Shown: one piece after another, positions 31,030 to 38,467 of the stretch
Layout: each line of letters starts with the position of its first letter
How positions within the stretch are numbered: position 1 is the first letter of the stretch
NCBI GenBank assembly: GCA_964563315.1
Contig: CAZLWG010000006.1
Location: 5,198-69,197 of the forward strand
From: an uncultured Anaerolinea sp.
GTDB taxonomy: Bacteria; Chloroflexota; Anaerolineae; Anaerolineales; Villigracilaceae
Direction of reading: 5' to 3'
DNA length: 64,000 nucleotides
Program-made: the position numbers and the translations under genes
Notes under the pieces: generated by a model
Told to the model about the DNA's origin: nothing
Database searches by the model: none
The model's input: the letters and a program-made list of their open reading frames with translations, nothing else

Positions 31030-32850
31030 TTATTGCCACAGATCTTTTGCCGCATCCACCAAGCCTAATTCAATCAGTTTCTCGCGCGTAGGTTTGCCGG
31101 TTTCCATATCCCAGCCGCGGACTTTGTAGTAGGCATCGAGCATGCTCTGCAGGTCCGGTGCGAATCCCTCTGAGCCGCCGTCAGGGAAAGGCACAAGCAG
31201 GGCTTTGGGCAGCGTATCATTCTCAGCAGTCAACCCAAGGCGGTTGTTGATCGCGCGTTTGAGGTTCCAACTCCGCTCCCCTGCCTTCATCATGTCGTTA
31301 ACCGTCCATTCTAATCCGCAGGCGGCATTAATCAAATCCACCTGTTCTTGCGGATCCACGTTCGCAAAAATGCACATCACCATCGCATTGAACATCGTAC
31401 GCCAGTCCTGATGCTTGGCGACATTCCCCGCTTTTTCTGCCTGGTCGTGGCGTGAGAAGAATTCGATCCCTAATTTCTCGTGAGTGTGCCCCCAATCCAC
31501 AAAAAAATAATCCGATTGGTTATGACACGCCCCGCGCGGGCTGGTAGCATATGAAAGCGCCATGCCCGAAACCCCGCGTGGATCGTGGTACGCCACTTCG
31601 AGTCCGTTCACCTGCACAGCTTCCTTCTCCATACCGAAATGAGAGGCAAAACGCCGCGAACCCAATGCCAGCACATTACCAATACCCTCGCGCGCTCCGA
31701 TCAGGCGTACAAGTCCTTCGATGACATCCACATCGCCCCAATTCAACTCGATGCCGCCCGTATCCTCTTTTGTAATGACCCCTTTCTCATACAAATGAAA
31801 TGCCAGCCCAATGGTATTGCTTGCACTGATGGTGTCCATGCCGTAACGGTCGCACAACTCGCCCAGATCCACGATGGCTTCGAGATTCGAATTCATCAGG
31901 TTTGCGCCAAACCCCACCATCGTTTCATACTCGGGGCCTTTTCGCTTCATCTTGTCGTCTGGAAGTTTCACCACCCGCCCGCATGCGATTACGCAACCCT
32001 GGCATGCGCTTCGCCCTGTCAAGATCGTTTCCGCCATTTTTGCACCGGAAATTTCATCCACCTGCTCAAACGATCCGCGCGAATAATATTTCGCTGGCAT
32101 CGCGCCAAGGTATTCCGAATAATTCGCCGCGCCGCCTGTGCCAACTTCCCGAAGCACCTTGGTCTCGTTATCTTCTTTCAACCTGCGGTTCGCCTCGGAC
32201 CGCAGCGCTTTGTACCGTGGCAGATTAAAAACAGGGATTTCATTCACCCCATGCACTGCGATCGCTTTAAGATTCTTGGATCCCATCACAGCCCCTAGTC
32301 CGGTTCGCCCCGCCATGCGTCCATGATCGCACATGATCGAAGCGAACATGACCTGTTTTTCTCCGGCAGGCCCGATGACGCACACCCTTGCAGTCTTCTC
32401 GCCGATTTCCTCTTTGACTTTTTCCTGCGCTGTATAAGTGTTCATCCCCCACAAATGCGCCGCACTTCGGACCTCGAACCTGCTCCCGTTTAACCAGAGG
32501 AAAACCGGCTCTGCCGCCTTTCCCATGATCCATAAGCCGTCATACCCCGCCTTGCGAAGTTCGGGTCCCCAAAAGCCTCCAATGTTGGATTCTGCCCATA
32601 GACCGGTGGCAGGCCCCTTTCCGCAAATGACGAAGCGTCCGGTGGTCGGGCCTGAGGTGCCGGTCATGGGTCCCATCAGAAAAAGAAGAGGGGCATGTTC
32701 AGAGAAGGCATCCAGTTCCGGGGTCAACGCATCATATAAAAGCCGTGCCGCAAGTGATGCGCCGCCTAGAAAATCGCGTTCCCATTCTTTGGGCATGGAA
32801 AATTGCTCCGTTTTGCCGGATGTAAGGTTAATTTTGAGGATGGGCTGCAT
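31030..32850 (-). CDS. aor: aldehyde:ferredoxin oxidoreductase (tungstopterin WOR/AOR family)
   Basis: FLGGASLA, AGRTGLGAVMGSKNLKAIAV, CQGCVIAC, GPEYET, DPRG, RGACH; GGAGG RBS. Confidence 0.92.
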   Translation of the reverse strand: MQPILKINLTSGKTEQFSMPKEWERDFLGGASLAARLLYDALTPELDAFSEHAPLLFLMGPMTGTSGPTTGRFVICGKGPATGLWAESNIGGFWGPELRKAGYDGLWIMGKAAEPVFLWLNGSRFEVRSAAHLWGMNTYTAQEKVKEEIGEKTARVCVIGPAGEKQVMFASIMCDHGRMAGRTGLGAVMGSKNLKAIAVHGVNEIPVFNLPRYKALRSEANRRLKEDNETKVLREVGTGGAANYSEYLGAMPAKYYSRGSFEQVDEISGAKMAETILTGRSACQGCVIACGRVVKLPDDKMKRKGPEYETMVGFGANLMNSNLEAIVDLGELCDRYGMDTISASNTIGLAFHLYEKGVITKEDTGGIELNWGDVDVIEGLVRLIGAREGIGNVLALGSRRFASHFGMEKEAVQVNGLEVAYHDPRGVSGMALSYATSPRGACHNQSDYFFVDWGHTHEKLGIEFFSRHDQAEKAGNVAKHQDWRTMFNAMVMCIFANVDPQEQVDLINAACGLEWTVNDMMKAGERSWNLKRAINNRLGLTAENDTLPKALLVPFPDGGSEGFAPDLQSMLDAYYKVRGWDMETGKPTREKLIELGLVDAAKDLWQ

Positions 32851-32860
32851 TGGAGGATGG

Positions 32861-33271
32861 TTATTTGATCTCGGTAGTTACTTCCTGCGCGCAACGGACA
32901 AAGTCCAGCACGGTGGGGACGTTTCGCATCATATACGCCATGCTTCCATTGACCTTCAATCTCATGGTCATCATGGCTGTCATTGGGTTTAATTTCCCTG
33001 AAAGCACTGCAGTGATATTGTCATACGATGCGGTCAGAGTAAAAGCAGGGTTGGGGTAAGCGGTGGGATCGGGGTTGTAGTCCACTTTTCGGCATGTGCC
33101 ATGCCACAGGTCCAGATAGAACGTGAGGCGTTCCTTGAGGTTCCCCTCCGGTTCGATGAAAAAGAACAGATCACCCTCCCAATTCCTGGCGATTTCGTTG
33201 TACTTCCCGTCCGAATTCAATTTTATTTCCAGCCCCTGTAACCATTCCGCGCTTGGAAATATCGCAGGCAT
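32861..33271 (-). CDS. SCP2 sterol/lipid-binding domain protein
   Basis: FPSAEWL, LSGKLNPMTAMMTMRLKVNG; GGAGG RBS before the ATG at 33271. Confidence 0.85.
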   Translation of the reverse strand: MPAIFPSAEWLQGLEIKLNSDGKYNEIARNWEGDLFFFIEPEGNLKERLTFYLDLWHGTCRKVDYNPDPTAYPNPAFTLTASYDNITAVLSGKLNPMTAMMTMRLKVNGSMAYMMRNVPTVLDFVRCAQEVTTEIK

Positions 33272-33381
33272 ATAACCGACCTCCAATTTTTATTCAATTG
33301 TACCATCGAGGCATCGCCGGATTAATCCTTGCGGAATTGAAAAAAATGGTCTATGCTTAATGGACAGGATAAACCGTCCTG

Positions 33382-33397
33382 TGACAGGATACTGTCA
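33382..33397. promoter_or_regulatory. palindromic putative operator upstream of the ABC operon
   Basis: TGACAG-GATA-CTGTCA palindrome; GACAGGATA occurs as a direct repeat at 33363 and 33383. Confidence 0.4.
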
Positions 33398-33420
33398 ATC
33401 CAAATTTTCTGGAGGAGAAA

Positions 33421-34332
33421 ATGAAAAAACTGTATTCACTGGCAAGCATCCTTGTGCTTGCCGCCGTTGTTCTCGCGGCTTGTGGAGGCGGGGGCAGTTC
33501 AGCCGGTGCCAGCGACCTGTTGGGCGCCATCAAGGAACGCGGCTACATCCTCGTTTCTACCGACCCGAACTACGAACCTCAGTCCTTCCTCAATACGGCT
33601 GGCTCGCGCCCCGCTGACACCAAGTGCCCGTCCGATGCCCTGACGACCGCCGAAATGCAGGGCTTCGATGTGGATGTCGCCATTGCCATTGGTAATGGCA
33701 TCGGTGTGGAAACCTGCTTTGCCACCCCGGATTGGGACATCATCACCGCAGGCAGCTGGGCAGACAAATGGGACCTCAGTGTCGGTTCGATGACCATCAC
33801 CACCGCCCGCCAGCAAATTCTCGATTTCAGCACTCCCTATTACTACACCCCTGCTGTGATCGCTGTCCGCGCTGATTCCGGGCTCTCCACCCTTGCGGAT
33901 CTTGAAGGTCAGGCTTTGTGCGTAGGCAGCGCAACCACCTACGATCAATGGTTGAACGGCGATATTGAAGGTCTTGGCCTGCCCGAGTCCTCCATTTACG
34001 CCCAACCGCCCGCCAACGTGACTGTCGTTCCGCTTCCAACTGACCAGGAATGCGCCCAGGCGATAGCGGCCGGACGCGAGGACTTTGTCGGCTATGTGAC
34101 TTCTGACACCGTCGTCAATGCCAATATTGCGGCCGGCTTCCCGGTCGTCAAACTCGGCTCAGCGGTCTATTCAGAAGACCTTGCTGCAGCGGTTGACAAG
34201 AGTTCCACCCTGCCGACTGCCACCCTGCTTGCGGAAGTCAACAGGATCATCGGTCAGATGCACAGCGACGGGACACTTTCCGGCCTTTCCAACCAATGGT
34301 TTGGTGAAGATTTAACCCAGGCTCCCAACTAA
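33421..34332 (+). CDS. polar amino acid ABC transporter substrate-binding lipoprotein
   Basis: Lipobox VLAAC; YEPQSF, GFDVDVA, WDLSVGSMTITTARQQILDFSTPYY. Confidence 0.92.
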   Translation: MKKLYSLASILVLAAVVLAACGGGGSSAGASDLLGAIKERGYILVSTDPNYEPQSFLNTAGSRPADTKCPSDALTTAEMQGFDVDVAIAIGNGIGVETCFATPDWDIITAGSWADKWDLSVGSMTITTARQQILDFSTPYYYTPAVIAVRADSGLSTLADLEGQALCVGSATTYDQWLNGDIEGLGLPESSIYAQPPANVTVVPLPTDQECAQAIAAGREDFVGYVTSDTVVNANIAAGFPVVKLGSAVYSEDLAAAVDKSSTLPTATLLAEVNRIIGQMHSDGTLSGLSNQWFGEDLTQAPN

Positions 34333-34342
34333 TTTGCATTAC

Positions 34343-34389
34343 AATGGAGGAAGGCGGTAGCGTCCAAGTGCCGTCTTCCTCCATTTTTT
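34343..34389 (+). terminator. intra-operonic hairpin/terminator after the binding-protein gene
   Basis: 15-bp stem AATGGAGGAAGGCGG/CCGTCTTCCTCCATT (one G-U pair) followed by a T-run. Confidence 0.6.
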
Positions 34390-34411
34390 CGATACAGGAA
34401 GGTCACACGAG

Positions 34412-35251
34412 ATGAGCGCACTTGACCATGGCAAAACAGGCGCGGCAAAGACACAAGGCGACCTGTTATTCGAATCCCAACTACGGGAAAAGAGCAGGTT
34501 CAAGCGGAATGTGGGGGTTTCATGGGGTATTCTATTTCTTATCATCGTATATTTTTTCAGCGGGCAAAATTTCCTGGGAATTAAAACCATCGAGTTGAAT
34601 ACCGATTTCATTGTCGCGCAAATCGGTTTCATTGCACAGGGTTTGCCGCAGACCCTGCTGGTATCCATCCTTGCGATCACACTTGCCATGATCCTGGCGC
34701 TGTTGGCAGCATTGGGGCGGCTTTCCACCGTCCCGCCGCTCTACGCGCTCAGCACGTTCTATGTTTCGCTCATTCGCGGGACGCCGCTGTATCTCCAGAT
34801 CTTTTTCTTCTTCCTTGCGCTTCCCCAGCTCGGCATCGTGCTGACCGGTCTGTTCGCGGGCGTGCTGGCGCTTGGGCTCAACTACGGCGCATACATGAGC
34901 GAGATATTTCGCGCCGGGCTGGCATCTGTCGGCAAGGGTCAGAGGGAAGCCGCCATTGCGCTCGGCATGACCCCCACGCAAACCATGCGCCGCATCGTCC
35001 TTCCGCAAGCGCTTCGGTTCGCCATTCCGCCAGTCGGCAATGAATTCATTGCCATGACAAAGGACTCGGCACTCGTCTCTGCAACGGGATTTGTCCATGA
35101 GATCATGTGGCGCGCCACCAGAGTGGGACGCGCTCAATTCAACAATCTCGAAGCGCTCATCATGGCGGCGGTGTTCTACTGGGTAATGACCCTTCTTCTT
35201 ACCTATGTACAAAGCATCATCGAAGCACGCCTTTCCAAAGGAGACCGATAA
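34412..35251 (+). CDS. polar amino acid ABC transporter permease
   Basis: [39 protein letters not shown] (EAA motif), KDSALV. Confidence 0.95.
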
Positions 35252-35253
35252 TC

Positions 35254-36015
35254 ATGGTCCCCATCGTAAAAATCAACAATCTCGATAAATATTTTGGACG
35301 CCTGCATGTCCTAAAAGACATCGATCTTGAAGTCGGGGAACGGGAAGTCGTCTGCTTGATCGGTCGCAGCGGTTCCGGTAAAAGCACCCTGCTGCGCTGC
35401 ATCAATTTTCTCGAAGAACCGTCTCATGGAATCATCGAAGTGGATGGAGTGCAGGTCAAAGCAGGGGAAAAAGGAAAAGCCCGCCGCCAGCTTGTCCATG
35501 ACGTGCGTTTGAAAACCGGCATGGTCTTTCAGGAATTCAACCTCTTCCCGCACATGTCAGTGCTGGAAAACGTCATCGAAGGGCCGGTCACCGTCAAGGG
35601 TATGGACCGCAAAACAGCAATCGAACTCGCCGAACAGAATCTCGACAGTGTTGGTCTATTGTTCAAAAAGGACGAATACCCCAACCGCCTCTCCGGCGGA
35701 CAAAAACAGCGCGTTGCCATTGCGCGCGCCCTGACGATGGAACCGCGCGTCATGCTCTTCGACGAACCTACTTCCGCGCTCGACCCCGAACTCATCGGCG
35801 AGGTGCTGAACGTGATGAAAAAGGTTGCGCTGGAAGGCATGACCATGATCGTGGTTACGCATGAGATGGGCTTTGCCCGCGAAGTGGCAGACCGCGTCAT
35901 CGTCATGGCAGACGGTGAACTCATCGAAGATAACAAACCGGAAGAAATTTTCAACGCACCCAAAGACCCGCGTACCGAGGCGCTCATCGTTCGTTACCGC
36001 ACCGGCGGAGCTTAA
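35254..36015 (+). CDS. polar amino acid ABC transporter ATP-binding protein
   Basis: [52 protein letters not shown]; AAGGAG RBS. Confidence 0.96.
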
Positions 36016-36776
36016 TGCCTGTTGCGATCACCCGCAAAGTCAGTTCGCGCTGCAACGAATGCGAGATCACTCACATCCGCCGTGTACCGATAGATCTGAT
36101 CACTGCCCAGGCGCAGCATGATGGATATACACAAGCCCTGAAATATCTGGGCTGCCAGGTCGTAGAGTTACCTGAAGAGCCCGACCTGCCCGACTCTGTC
36201 TTCGTAGAGGATACAGCCTTCATTCTGCCGGAAGTCGCGGTCATCACCAGACCCGGCGCAGACTCCCGCAAACCCGAAACAAAGTCGATGGTCGAGGTGC
36301 TTTCGCACTACCGCCCGCTCCTGCATATCGCCGGCCCCGTAACCGTGGATGGCGGCGATGTTCTGGTGCTTGGAAAAAACATCTTTATCGGGTTATCCAC
36401 GCGGAGCAACCTTTACGCTGTTCAGCAGATCAAGAACATGCTGGAGAGCTATGGCTACTCGGCAGCCGGCGTTGCATTGAAAGGCTGCCTCCACCTTAAA
36501 TCAGCCGTCACGCGCGTGGATGACAGGACTCTGCTCATAAACAAAAACTGGGTGGACGCATCCCCCTTCGATGGTTATGACCTCATCGAAACGGACGCTT
36601 CGGAACCTTACGCCGCAAACTGTCTGCCCGTCAATGGGCACATCATCTACCCGACAACCTTCCCCAAGACCCAGCACAAACTCGAAGAAAAAGGTTACAG
36701 CGTGGCCAATGTCGAATTGGGCGAATTGGCGAAAGCGGAGGGTGCGGTCACGTGTTGCAGCCTGATCGTTTCGTGA
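36015..36776 (+). CDS. dimethylarginine dimethylaminohydrolase family amidinohydrolase
   Basis: AQHDGY, PDSVFVEDTA, SRKPE, VDGGDV, LHLKS, EGAVTCCS; TAATG overlap with the ATPase gene. Confidence 0.88.
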   Translation: MPVAITRKVSSRCNECEITHIRRVPIDLITAQAQHDGYTQALKYLGCQVVELPEEPDLPDSVFVEDTAFILPEVAVITRPGADSRKPETKSMVEVLSHYRPLLHIAGPVTVDGGDVLVLGKNIFIGLSTRSNLYAVQQIKNMLESYGYSAAGVALKGCLHLKSAVTRVDDRTLLINKNWVDASPFDGYDLIETDASEPYAANCLPVNGHIIYPTTFPKTQHKLEEKGYSVANVELGELAKAEGAVTCCSLIVS

Positions 36777-36819
36777 AGCAGGCTTGAGATTGGGGATGAA
36801 GCGGGTATAATCCCCAGCC

Positions 36820-37506
36820 ATGAAGAATCCAAAATCCGAATCTGCAAAGTATTGGGAAGACCATCTAAAAAGTTGGGAAGCCGGCGCGTATTTCAAGGAG
36901 GGTCAACAAAACGCGAACTGGTGGGACCGTCTTTCCAGTGTGTTCCGCGGCGACGCCATGTATGTGCGCATGAATACCGCTTTGGAACTGATCGCGCCGC
37001 ATATCAAAGGCGCGGTTGTGCTGGACGTGGGTTGCGCCTCGGGGCGTTTTGCATTCCAAATGCTCGAAGCCGGCGCTCAAAAAGTATACGGCACGGATAT
37101 ATCCACCGAGGCATTGGAATTTGCAAAAACGCGCAGCAGCGAGTTACGGCTTCAAGATAAGACCGAGTTTTCGATGATGGATGTTGTCCAGCCCAATTCG
37201 CCGCTTCCACGGGTCGATCTCGTGACAGCGCTGGGTGTTGTCGAATATTTCGACGCGAAGGATATGTCCGCCTTTCTCGGCAATTTGCGGACGAAATATT
37301 TTCTGCTCGATTTTCCCGATCATGGGCGCAAAAAGGAATTCCCCACCTGGATCCTGCGGCAGGTATACATCCGCGTGAACCGCCTGCCCGGTGTGTACCT
37401 GTATTCGCTGGACGAGTTTTCAAACATCGCCGAGCCATTCGGCTTTGCAAATCTGCGCGTGATCGAACGGAATAATTTCTATTACGTCACCAATCTGCCT
37501 GTATGA
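36820..37506 (+). CDS. class I SAM-dependent methyltransferase
   Basis: VLDVGCASGRF, YGTDIS, LGVVEYF. Confidence 0.85.
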   Translation: MKNPKSESAKYWEDHLKSWEAGAYFKEGQQNANWWDRLSSVFRGDAMYVRMNTALELIAPHIKGAVVLDVGCASGRFAFQMLEAGAQKVYGTDISTEALEFAKTRSSELRLQDKTEFSMMDVVQPNSPLPRVDLVTALGVVEYFDAKDMSAFLGNLRTKYFLLDFPDHGRKKEFPTWILRQVYIRVNRLPGVYLYSLDEFSNIAEPFGFANLRVIERNNFYYVTNLPV

Positions 37507-38351
37507 GCAAACTTGCCTGCGTCACACTGGATATGGAGCCGGATTATGGCGATCCTGAAAAGCGGATTCGCCTGCTCGAAAACCCGGAGTTTTTTGAGCG
37601 TTATGTTTCCATCGTAAAAAAGTACGGCGCTAAAGTGACCATGTTTACGGTCACGAGTTTGTTCGAGAAGTACGGAGGCGGGTTCCATGAATTGGCTGCG
37701 CGCATACCGTTGGAATTTTCCGTCCATTCCCACACGCATGATCCGCGCAGAGCCTGTTCACTGGATGAAGTCCGCGCTTCACAGGAAGCTTACAAAAAAT
37801 TCACGGGGATCAAACCGCTTGGGTACCGCGCCCCTATCGGACGGATTGACAAGCAAGGCTTAAATCACCTGCTCGATCATAATTTTGAGTATGATGCCAG
37901 CGTGTATCCCTCCATTCGCCCGGGAGAGTTCGGTTACTTCAATTTACACATGCCAAACATCCCCTTCCGTGTGGTACGCAAGGACGGCAAGTCGCTGGTG
38001 GAGTTTCCATTCACTGCAATTGAAAGGATCCGCATTGTATTTGCCTTGAGTTATGCCAAACTGCTTGGCTGGGGAATGTATTCAATGCTGCTGAAGGTTT
38101 TCGGGCTGCCGAAATCAACCCTCTTGCTTTCACACCCGCATGATTTTTATTTCGCTTCGATTACAAACAATACAACCAAGGGCTTGGAGCGGGCGGCGCT
38201 TGCAAGAAATTCAAATCGCGCATTCGACTATTTCGAAAACATGCTAAAGGGGCTCAAATCTCAAGGGTATGAGTTCGCCTTTATCAGTGAACTGTACGGG
38301 CAAATAAAAACATCGAATCTGCAGGAGTTTGCATGGGAGGAATGGAAATAA
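37503..38351 (+). CDS. polysaccharide deacetylase family protein
   Basis: VTLDMEPD, TMFTV, HSHTH, GYRAP, YDASV, HPHDF. Confidence 0.85.
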   Translation: MSKLACVTLDMEPDYGDPEKRIRLLENPEFFERYVSIVKKYGAKVTMFTVTSLFEKYGGGFHELAARIPLEFSVHSHTHDPRRACSLDEVRASQEAYKKFTGIKPLGYRAPIGRIDKQGLNHLLDHNFEYDASVYPSIRPGEFGYFNLHMPNIPFRVVRKDGKSLVEFPFTAIERIRIVFALSYAKLLGWGMYSMLLKVFGLPKSTLLLSHPHDFYFASITNNTTKGLERAALARNSNRAFDYFENMLKGLKSQGYEFAFISELYGQIKTSNLQEFAWEEWK

Positions 38352-38377: not shown

Positions 38378-38385
38378 CTGTCCAG

Positions 38386-38467
38386 TGCGCTGGAGAGGAC
38401 TTGAACCTCCACGTCTTGCGACACATGGCCCTCAACCATGCCTGTCTGCCAATTCCAGCACCAGCGC
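38386..38467 (-). tRNA. tRNA-Leu (anticodon GAG)
   Basis: Cloverleaf: acceptor GCGCTGG/CCAGCGC plus A discriminator, D-loop GAATTGGCAGAC, anticodon stem CATGG/CCATG with loop TTGAGGG, long variable arm, T-loop TTCAAGT; CCA not encoded. Confidence 0.96.

Follow-up and report, generated by a model that had tools for sequence, protein, structure and literature searches.

A polar amino-acid importer operon of Candidatus Villigracilis with an appended DDAH-family hydrolase, and its possible role in methylarginine salvage

We analysed a stretch of 64,000 nucleotides (the window) from a member of Candidatus Villigracilis (Anaerolineales) whose genome is 3.5 Mb and 97.6% complete and whose lifestyle is filamentous, in sludge and groundwater. 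Four co-directional open reading frames (ORFs) lie together on its forward strand, as the original prediction for this DNA had stated. They encode a family-3 substrate-binding lipoprotein (303 amino acids, 33421..34332; PF00497), a single permease (279 amino acids, 34412..35251; PF00528, TIGR01726), an ATPase (253 amino acids, 35254..36015; PF00005, best NCBIfam match TcyN) and a hydrolase of the dimethylarginine dimethylaminohydrolase (DDAH) family with the amidinotransferase fold (253 amino acids, 36015..36776; assigned by phmmer, NCBIfam and individual residues). The first three have the composition of an ATP-binding cassette (ABC) importer of the polar amino-acid transport (PAAT) type, with an SBP_bac_3 protein, a HEQRo-type permease and a GlnQ/TcyN-type ATPase in one operon. 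On balance we favor the idea that this is a broad importer of basic and guanidino amino acids to which a genuine DDAH has been appended for methylarginine salvage.

The four genes can be read as one unit because a promoter motif lies ahead of them, a hairpin follows the first gene and a separate promoter-like site follows the last. The predicted promoter (33328..33358, forward strand, as are all of these signals) is sigma70-like, with a -35 element TTGCGG (33329-33334), a 17 nt spacer and a -10 element TATGCT (33352-33357); the motif is seen upstream of the binding-protein gene in the 42 loci inspected, and its strict form is found in 57/80 loci and has a single match in the host genome. Next comes a short, structured 5' leader with one or two predicted hairpins (33360..33403; fold z-score -3.1), and the comparable hairpins of relatives keep their structure with variable loops and sequence. 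A riboswitch was considered here and rejected, since there was no credible Rfam match and the stems are kept while the loops vary; the hairpins are probably mRNA-stabilising. The stem-loop and U-run between the binding-protein and permease genes (34344..34384; -29.5 kcal/mol, z -5.8), which has an equivalent in 42/42 inspected loci, is predicted to function as a partial terminator or 3' stabiliser. The promoter-like site after the hydrolase gene (36784..36811; 11/12 consensus match) belongs to the next unit, a methyltransferase and a polysaccharide deacetylase, and likely marks the 3' end of the operon. The ATPase stop and DDAH start share one base (CTTAATGCC), the TAATG overlap on which translational coupling had been predicated. 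Such 1- or 4-base overlaps occur at 478 of 2155 co-directional ORF pairs in the host genome (about 22%, a rough count) and the exact form is not kept in relatives, so we do not accept it as special evidence of coupling. In relatives the two genes are mostly separated by -4 to +12 nt, and 6/65 loci have a STAS gene between them. STAS-like genes at this position (about 125 amino acids, of the anti-sigma antagonist type by eye) were seen in loci L007, L009, L013, L016, L017, L019, L114 and L143.

The closest solved relatives of the hydrolase are the Pseudomonas aeruginosa DDAH (PDB 3rhy; phmmer E 1.5e-43) and human DDAH1. Its C247, H160 and D112 align with P. aeruginosa C249, H162 and E114 and are invariant wherever aligned among 65 operon copies; the catalytic assignment draws on solved structures of the P. 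aeruginosa enzyme, in which chains 3bpb and 1h70 (PDB) depart from chain 3rhy at the positions matched by His160 and Cys247, 1h70 being a C249S mutant (PMC11659421). The fold family and active-site residues are those of P. aeruginosa DDAH (1h70, 3rhy), except that Asp serves as the catalytic acid, which it also does in human DDAH1. All of the substrate residues D60, F63, E65, D66, R85 and R130 are present (P. aeruginosa D60, F63, E65, D66, R85 and R132; roles in part from PMC11659421), and these, with D112, H160, K162 and C247, are near-invariant across the 65 copies. In its LHLKS motif K162 lies two residues past the catalytic His160, and a Lys at this position in DDAH, as opposed to Asp in arginine deiminase (ADI), distinguishes the two families (PMC11659421). 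The protein also departs from ADI in length (253 against about 410 amino acids), in having FVED and not FTRD and HLK and not H-x-D, and in its scores of 32-35 bits with arcA models. The best-scoring NCBIfam model is the Streptomyces-type dimethylargininase NF045660 (203 bits over its full length, cut-off 340), followed by NF045658 (183 bits, cut-off 450), with ADI at 35 bits; the enzyme falls in a Chloroflexota-wide clade with about 38% identity to P. aeruginosa-type enzymes. The claims that this is a DDAH and that its catalytic Asp, His and Cys are intact thus held up in every catalytic and substrate residue checked, and we regard it as a genuine, ordinary member of the DDAH family with a predicted activity.

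Neighbouring genes for DDAH and a basic amino-acid transporter have been annotated before. On a Photobacterium plasmid a sigma54 regulator, a dimethylargininase above the NF045658 cut-off and a basic amino acid/polyamine antiporter adjoin, and in Phaeobacter a DDAH-like gene accompanies arginine-transaminase-pathway genes and an ABC system like that of the lysine/arginine/ornithine-binding protein (LAO). The P. aeruginosa DDAH is regulated by DdaR (PA1196) for methylarginine metabolism, according to the title of a paper cited in PMC8657755. In contrast to the Photobacterium and P. aeruginosa ddaH/DdaR arrangements, the window operon has an ABC importer, no adjacent regulator gene and a sigma70-like promoter. 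What sets it apart is the apparently uncharacterised, TcyJ-like subfamily to which the binding protein belongs, which lacks the Asp161 of LAO and is present in 65/351 sampled Anaerolineae.

The binding protein is modelled by AlphaFold with a pLDDT of 97.5, and its nearest solved structures are cluster-F amino-acid binders at 18-27% identity, the top structural neighbours being mostly Arg/Lys/Orn binders. Its best NCBIfam match is a cystine substrate-binding protein, at 89 bits far below the 312-bit cut-off, and ESM Atlas matches were to generic SBP_bac_3 clusters only. The permease scores 152 bits with Escherichia coli TcyL and 64-99 bits with HisQ, HisM, ArtQ and ArtM, and the ATPase is 52% identical to E. 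coli TcyN. Compared with the E. coli references, the pocket keeps the LAO residues D11, Y14, S18, aromatic 52, S70, S/T72 (here T72), R77 and T121; R130, T125, D48, Y51 and W105 fill LAO/ArtJ positions 77, 72, 11, 14 and 52, of which the first two contact the alpha-carboxylate and amine of the ligand and the other three its side chain. It differs from LAO/ArgT, HisJ and ArtJ (18-27% identity) by S69G and L117G, and it adds the acids E52, D208 and E252 to the LAO set. With TcyJ it has G117, Y122 and D143 in common, while the TcyJ pocket residues E11, N69, Q70, N121 and D161 have become D, G, S, T and S. The single-permease PAAT layout, Y122 and D143 are also common to E. coli TcyJLN and the Thermus Lys/Orn/AEC-type binder TTC0807 (PDB 3vv5), from which the window protein differs by its low identity (about 27%), the loss of Asp161, a 16-residue insertion apparently stapled by a disulfide, and its being a lipoprotein. 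At the position of LAO Asp161, where each of the six reference proteins has Asp, there is Ser228, and this Ser is conserved in close homologues. The opine binders NocT and OccJ have Ser (Ser207) and Asn here (PMC5740067); there are no opine oxidase genes near the window operon. The acidic pocket makes it likely that the ligand has a cationic side chain, and sequence alone cannot choose among arginine, methylarginines and N-substituted compounds.

A cysteine-containing insertion in this protein had also been pointed out, and TKCPSDALT does begin at residue 67, within the 16-residue insertion. The cysteines are at 21, 69, 99, 167 and 211. Cys21 is the lipobox residue; Cys69 covaries with Cys99 (among 16 distant homologues that carry the insertion Cys, 15 have Cys99, and Cys99 was never seen without the insertion Cys), and Cys167 covaries with Cys211. 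The likeliest roles of these residues are a lipid anchor and two putative structural disulfides, Cys69-Cys99 and Cys167-Cys211. A ligand or metal site in the insertion was considered and rejected on the same grounds, and the cysteines are uninformative on the ligand.

Homologues of the binding protein occur in other settings, although contigs of the distant ones are mostly short. In two other Anaerolineae (L222:4434-6998 and L226:4712-8587) the binding domain has family-5 peptide-binding domains as fusion partners, one fusion being a triple of SBP_bac_8, SBP_bac_3 and SBP_bac_5 (1292 amino acids). A 67% identical paralogue with T125G and E252D (L066:2244-8478, genome G016) sits between genes for an MttB-family methyltransferase and a dimethylglycine-dehydrogenase-like protein, a hint that its ligand may be an N-methylated amino acid. 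Directly ahead of the orthologous transporter of another family there is a gene for a creatininase/MftE-family amidohydrolase (L062:1445-2269, G039; similarly L063, G055). Rhizobial homologues (37-39% identity) with a different pocket lie in flavin-monooxygenase clusters; in L198-L200, on rhizobial plasmids, proteins without Asp161 accompany a conserved cluster of LLM flavin monooxygenase, flavin reductase, aldehyde dehydrogenase and alpha/beta hydrolase genes.

The pairing of importer and DDAH was followed through related loci, which come from Anaerolineales genomes that include named Ca. Villigracilis species (the DDAH of G036, a genome listed under this genus, and that of Ca. V. adiacens are identical). 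The DDAH gene comes after the transporter genes in 65/72 informative genome loci and 71/74 informative metagenome loci, and within the lineage the gene order is conserved more than by chance. A draw of 151 genomes from the family, with positions counted from coordinates, gives a looser picture. Of the 64 with the transporter, 24 have DDAH next to it, 25 carry DDAH on a different contig, 1 is ambiguous and in 14 no DDAH was found; of the 96 with DDAH, 46 gave no transporter; and adjacency is limited to seven genera. At four loci (in G002, G015, G017 and G031) the transporter has been lost and DDAH retained. In other families, where the pocket is near-identical, the transporter precedes plsX and there is no DDAH orthologue; the DDAHs of other Chloroflexota stand alone. 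No DDAH was found in G038, G039, G055, G442, G479 and G542 despite a near-identical binding pocket. Weak DDAH matches in G038, G039, G045, G055 and G060 were rejected as DDAH orthologues; those read through (the G055 ORF could not be resolved) are short ADI-like proteins of about 290 amino acids ending in GGPTCLTRP.

Two arrangements point to a functional link beyond position. In G673 and G634, from another family, a DDAH of a different clade (E65Q, K162L) lies two genes downstream of the orthologous transporter, and in G006 a divergent binding-protein paralogue is immediately ahead of DDAH, with the main transporter elsewhere. DDAH-like proteins with E65Q and K162L, encoded at L210:6471-7229 and L211:4486-5232, may have a different substrate. 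In the simplest history, an older importer operon would have gained DDAH in one Villigracilaceae subclade. The synteny survey proposed with the original prediction therefore has a mixed outcome: pairing is conserved in seven genera and loosely in another family, and the pair is not obligate.

The metabolic genes of the host suggest where the products of such an enzyme might go. Neither argG nor argH was found in the 97.6% complete genome, and argG was not found in the closed genome G009; therefore citrulline would not be returned to arginine and the cell would need arginine from outside. The transporter is kept in 6/6 high-quality argG-negative and 15/17 argG-positive genomes. For uptake the host also has three permeases of the APC family and a second ABC system for polar amino acids. 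Its genome does contain an ADI-like gene, an ornithine carbamoyltransferase (OTC) gene next to rocD (ornithine aminotransferase), a carbamate kinase gene and two genes of the arginase family, and from these we infer that citrulline made by DDAH joins the catabolic route of arginine. The ADI-like gene encodes a divergent protein of 414 amino acids and lies, by eye, between probable arginyl-tRNA synthetase and GTPase genes (G000 contig C2:119630-124256). Mycoplasma hominis similarly combines DDAH, ADI, OTC and carbamate kinase in one genome, and its DDAH was proposed as a side entry to the ADI pathway, although it did not grow on 0.5 mM asymmetric dimethylarginine (ADMA) (PMC2751442); an energy role through DDAH is thus proposed and unproven there too. 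Here, by comparison, the genes are scattered and respiratory oxidases are present.

MtbB, MtmB and GmaS were not found in the host (monooxygenase and dehydrogenase amine routes were not searched), which speaks against use of the amine by the host itself; it may therefore be released. Such a release of methylamines is plausible, and might lead to cross-feeding at most. The suggestion that they serve syntrophic partners finds no support, since the host encodes heme-copper oxidase subunits and the genus is described as a facultatively anaerobic heterotroph (PMC10746286). The host genome has five full-length MttB-family genes; non-pyrrolysine members of this family act on quaternary amines. Four MttB-family methyltransferase genes lie with a probable corrinoid protein gene, a GntR-like regulator gene and a peptidase-like gene on G000 contig C1:14942-23722.

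In our favored reading, a PAAT importer widespread in Anaerolineae would take up basic and guanidino amino acids, the likeliest being arginine and N-methylated arginines set free by protein decay, and DDAH would hydrolyse ADMA or N-monomethyl-L-arginine (L-NMMA) to citrulline and dimethylamine or methylamine through a Cys247 covalent intermediate. Citrulline would probably be converted by OTC, which we infer to run in the catabolic direction, to ornithine and carbamoyl phosphate; carbamate kinase could then yield ATP, RocD would move ornithine toward glutamate, and the amine would probably be excreted. The original interpretation thus survives in its core, a genuine DDAH-family enzyme in an operon with a polar amino-acid ABC importer, and not in its dedicated uptake or its syntrophy. 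Several observations weigh against our reading as well. Most family members have transporter and DDAH apart; each of the three transporter subunits scores higher with the cystine system TcyJLN than with arginine or histidine systems; Asp161, which forms a salt bridge to the alpha-amino group in LAO and ArtJ, is replaced, and in OccJ the absence of this ionic contact is linked to weaker arginine binding (PMC5740067); the hydrolase is under both NCBIfam dimethylargininase cut-offs, which are lineage-specific, yet far over the ADI and ArgZ models; and carbamate kinase is in a different cluster, with other carbamoyltransferases.

Of the alternatives, the one that survives best, which we regard as unlikely but worth weighing, is that the transporter carries an unrelated ligand (cystine- or diaminopimelate-like, or an N-alpha-substituted amino acid) and that DDAH is a passenger which landed between the ATPase gene and plsX, uses the operon promoter and acts on methylarginines from imported peptides or protein turnover. 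The binding protein does have TcyJ-like W105, G169, Y174 and D208 and has lost Asp161 as have NocT and OccJ (PMC5740067), but it differs from TcyJ at N69, Q70 and N121, and its acidic distal pocket fits a cationic side chain. As to position, other genes (STAS, methyltransferase-deacetylase and more) insert at the same site, transporters of other families stand upstream of plsX without DDAH, the block is free of both usual flanks in only 1 of 42 well-flanked loci, and DDAH outlasts loss of the transporter at the four loci above; set against these are the tight spacing maintained over seven genera and two separate cases in which this binding-protein family is joined anew to DDAH-like genes.

It is more doubtful still that the importer is dedicated to methylarginines, as had been claimed, with the binding protein preferring ADMA, L-NMMA or symmetric dimethylarginine over arginine and feeding DDAH. 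The glycines at LAO positions Ser69 and Leu117 would leave room near the guanidinium, although Gly117 is also a TcyJ feature, and arginine itself might enter through the second ABC system and the APC-family permeases. DDAH is enriched in genomes with the transporter (50/64 against 46/87 without it, counted over relatives that are not independent); nevertheless, the parts are separate in most family members, 14 of 64 transporter genomes and 46 of 96 DDAH genomes have no partner found, and the six genomes named above have a near-identical pocket and no detectable DDAH. Fusion of the domain to family-5 peptide-binding domains in two other families suggests a general nutrient. Equally tentative is the idea that this is the first family-3 subfamily to select N-methylated or N-substituted arginine in a pocket lacking the alpha-amino Asp. 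Finally, it is very improbable that the hydrolase acts mainly on arginine or another guanidino alpha-amino acid such as homoarginine or canavanine, since its FVED and LHLK (not MHLD) motifs and the ADI-like and arginase-family genes already in the genome outweigh its distance from P. aeruginosa-type enzymes, its sub-cut-off scores, the clade-specific Cys16, Cys158 and His20 near the substrate entry, and the fact that no assay of a Chloroflexota member was found in the literature searched.

Bacterial methylarginine uptake has been little studied (literature searches in an incomplete library found no characterised methylarginine binding protein), and the operon offers one soluble, well-folded lipoprotein and one small enzyme with which a ligand would be assigned to the whole binding-protein subfamily. 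If that ligand is simply arginine, this is a routine catabolic operon; were the pocket selective for N-methylarginines, an abundant sludge and groundwater genus would be a specialised methylarginine sink, and an ADMA sensor could be built on the protein as its scaffold.

Divergent from the operon (31030-33286, reverse strand) are a gene with an SCP2 sterol-carrier domain and then an aldehyde:ferredoxin oxidoreductase gene, the usual upstream neighbours. Downstream are the SAM methyltransferase and polysaccharide deacetylase genes (36820-38351), with their own promoter-like site. A minority of relatives likewise have this pair inserted after DDAH and ahead of tRNA-Leu/plsX; most related loci have no counterpart of it, and there plsX comes after DDAH. 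A tRNA-Leu(GAG) gene (38385-38467, reverse strand) lies directly upstream of plsX, and may explain the repeated insertion of genes at this site.

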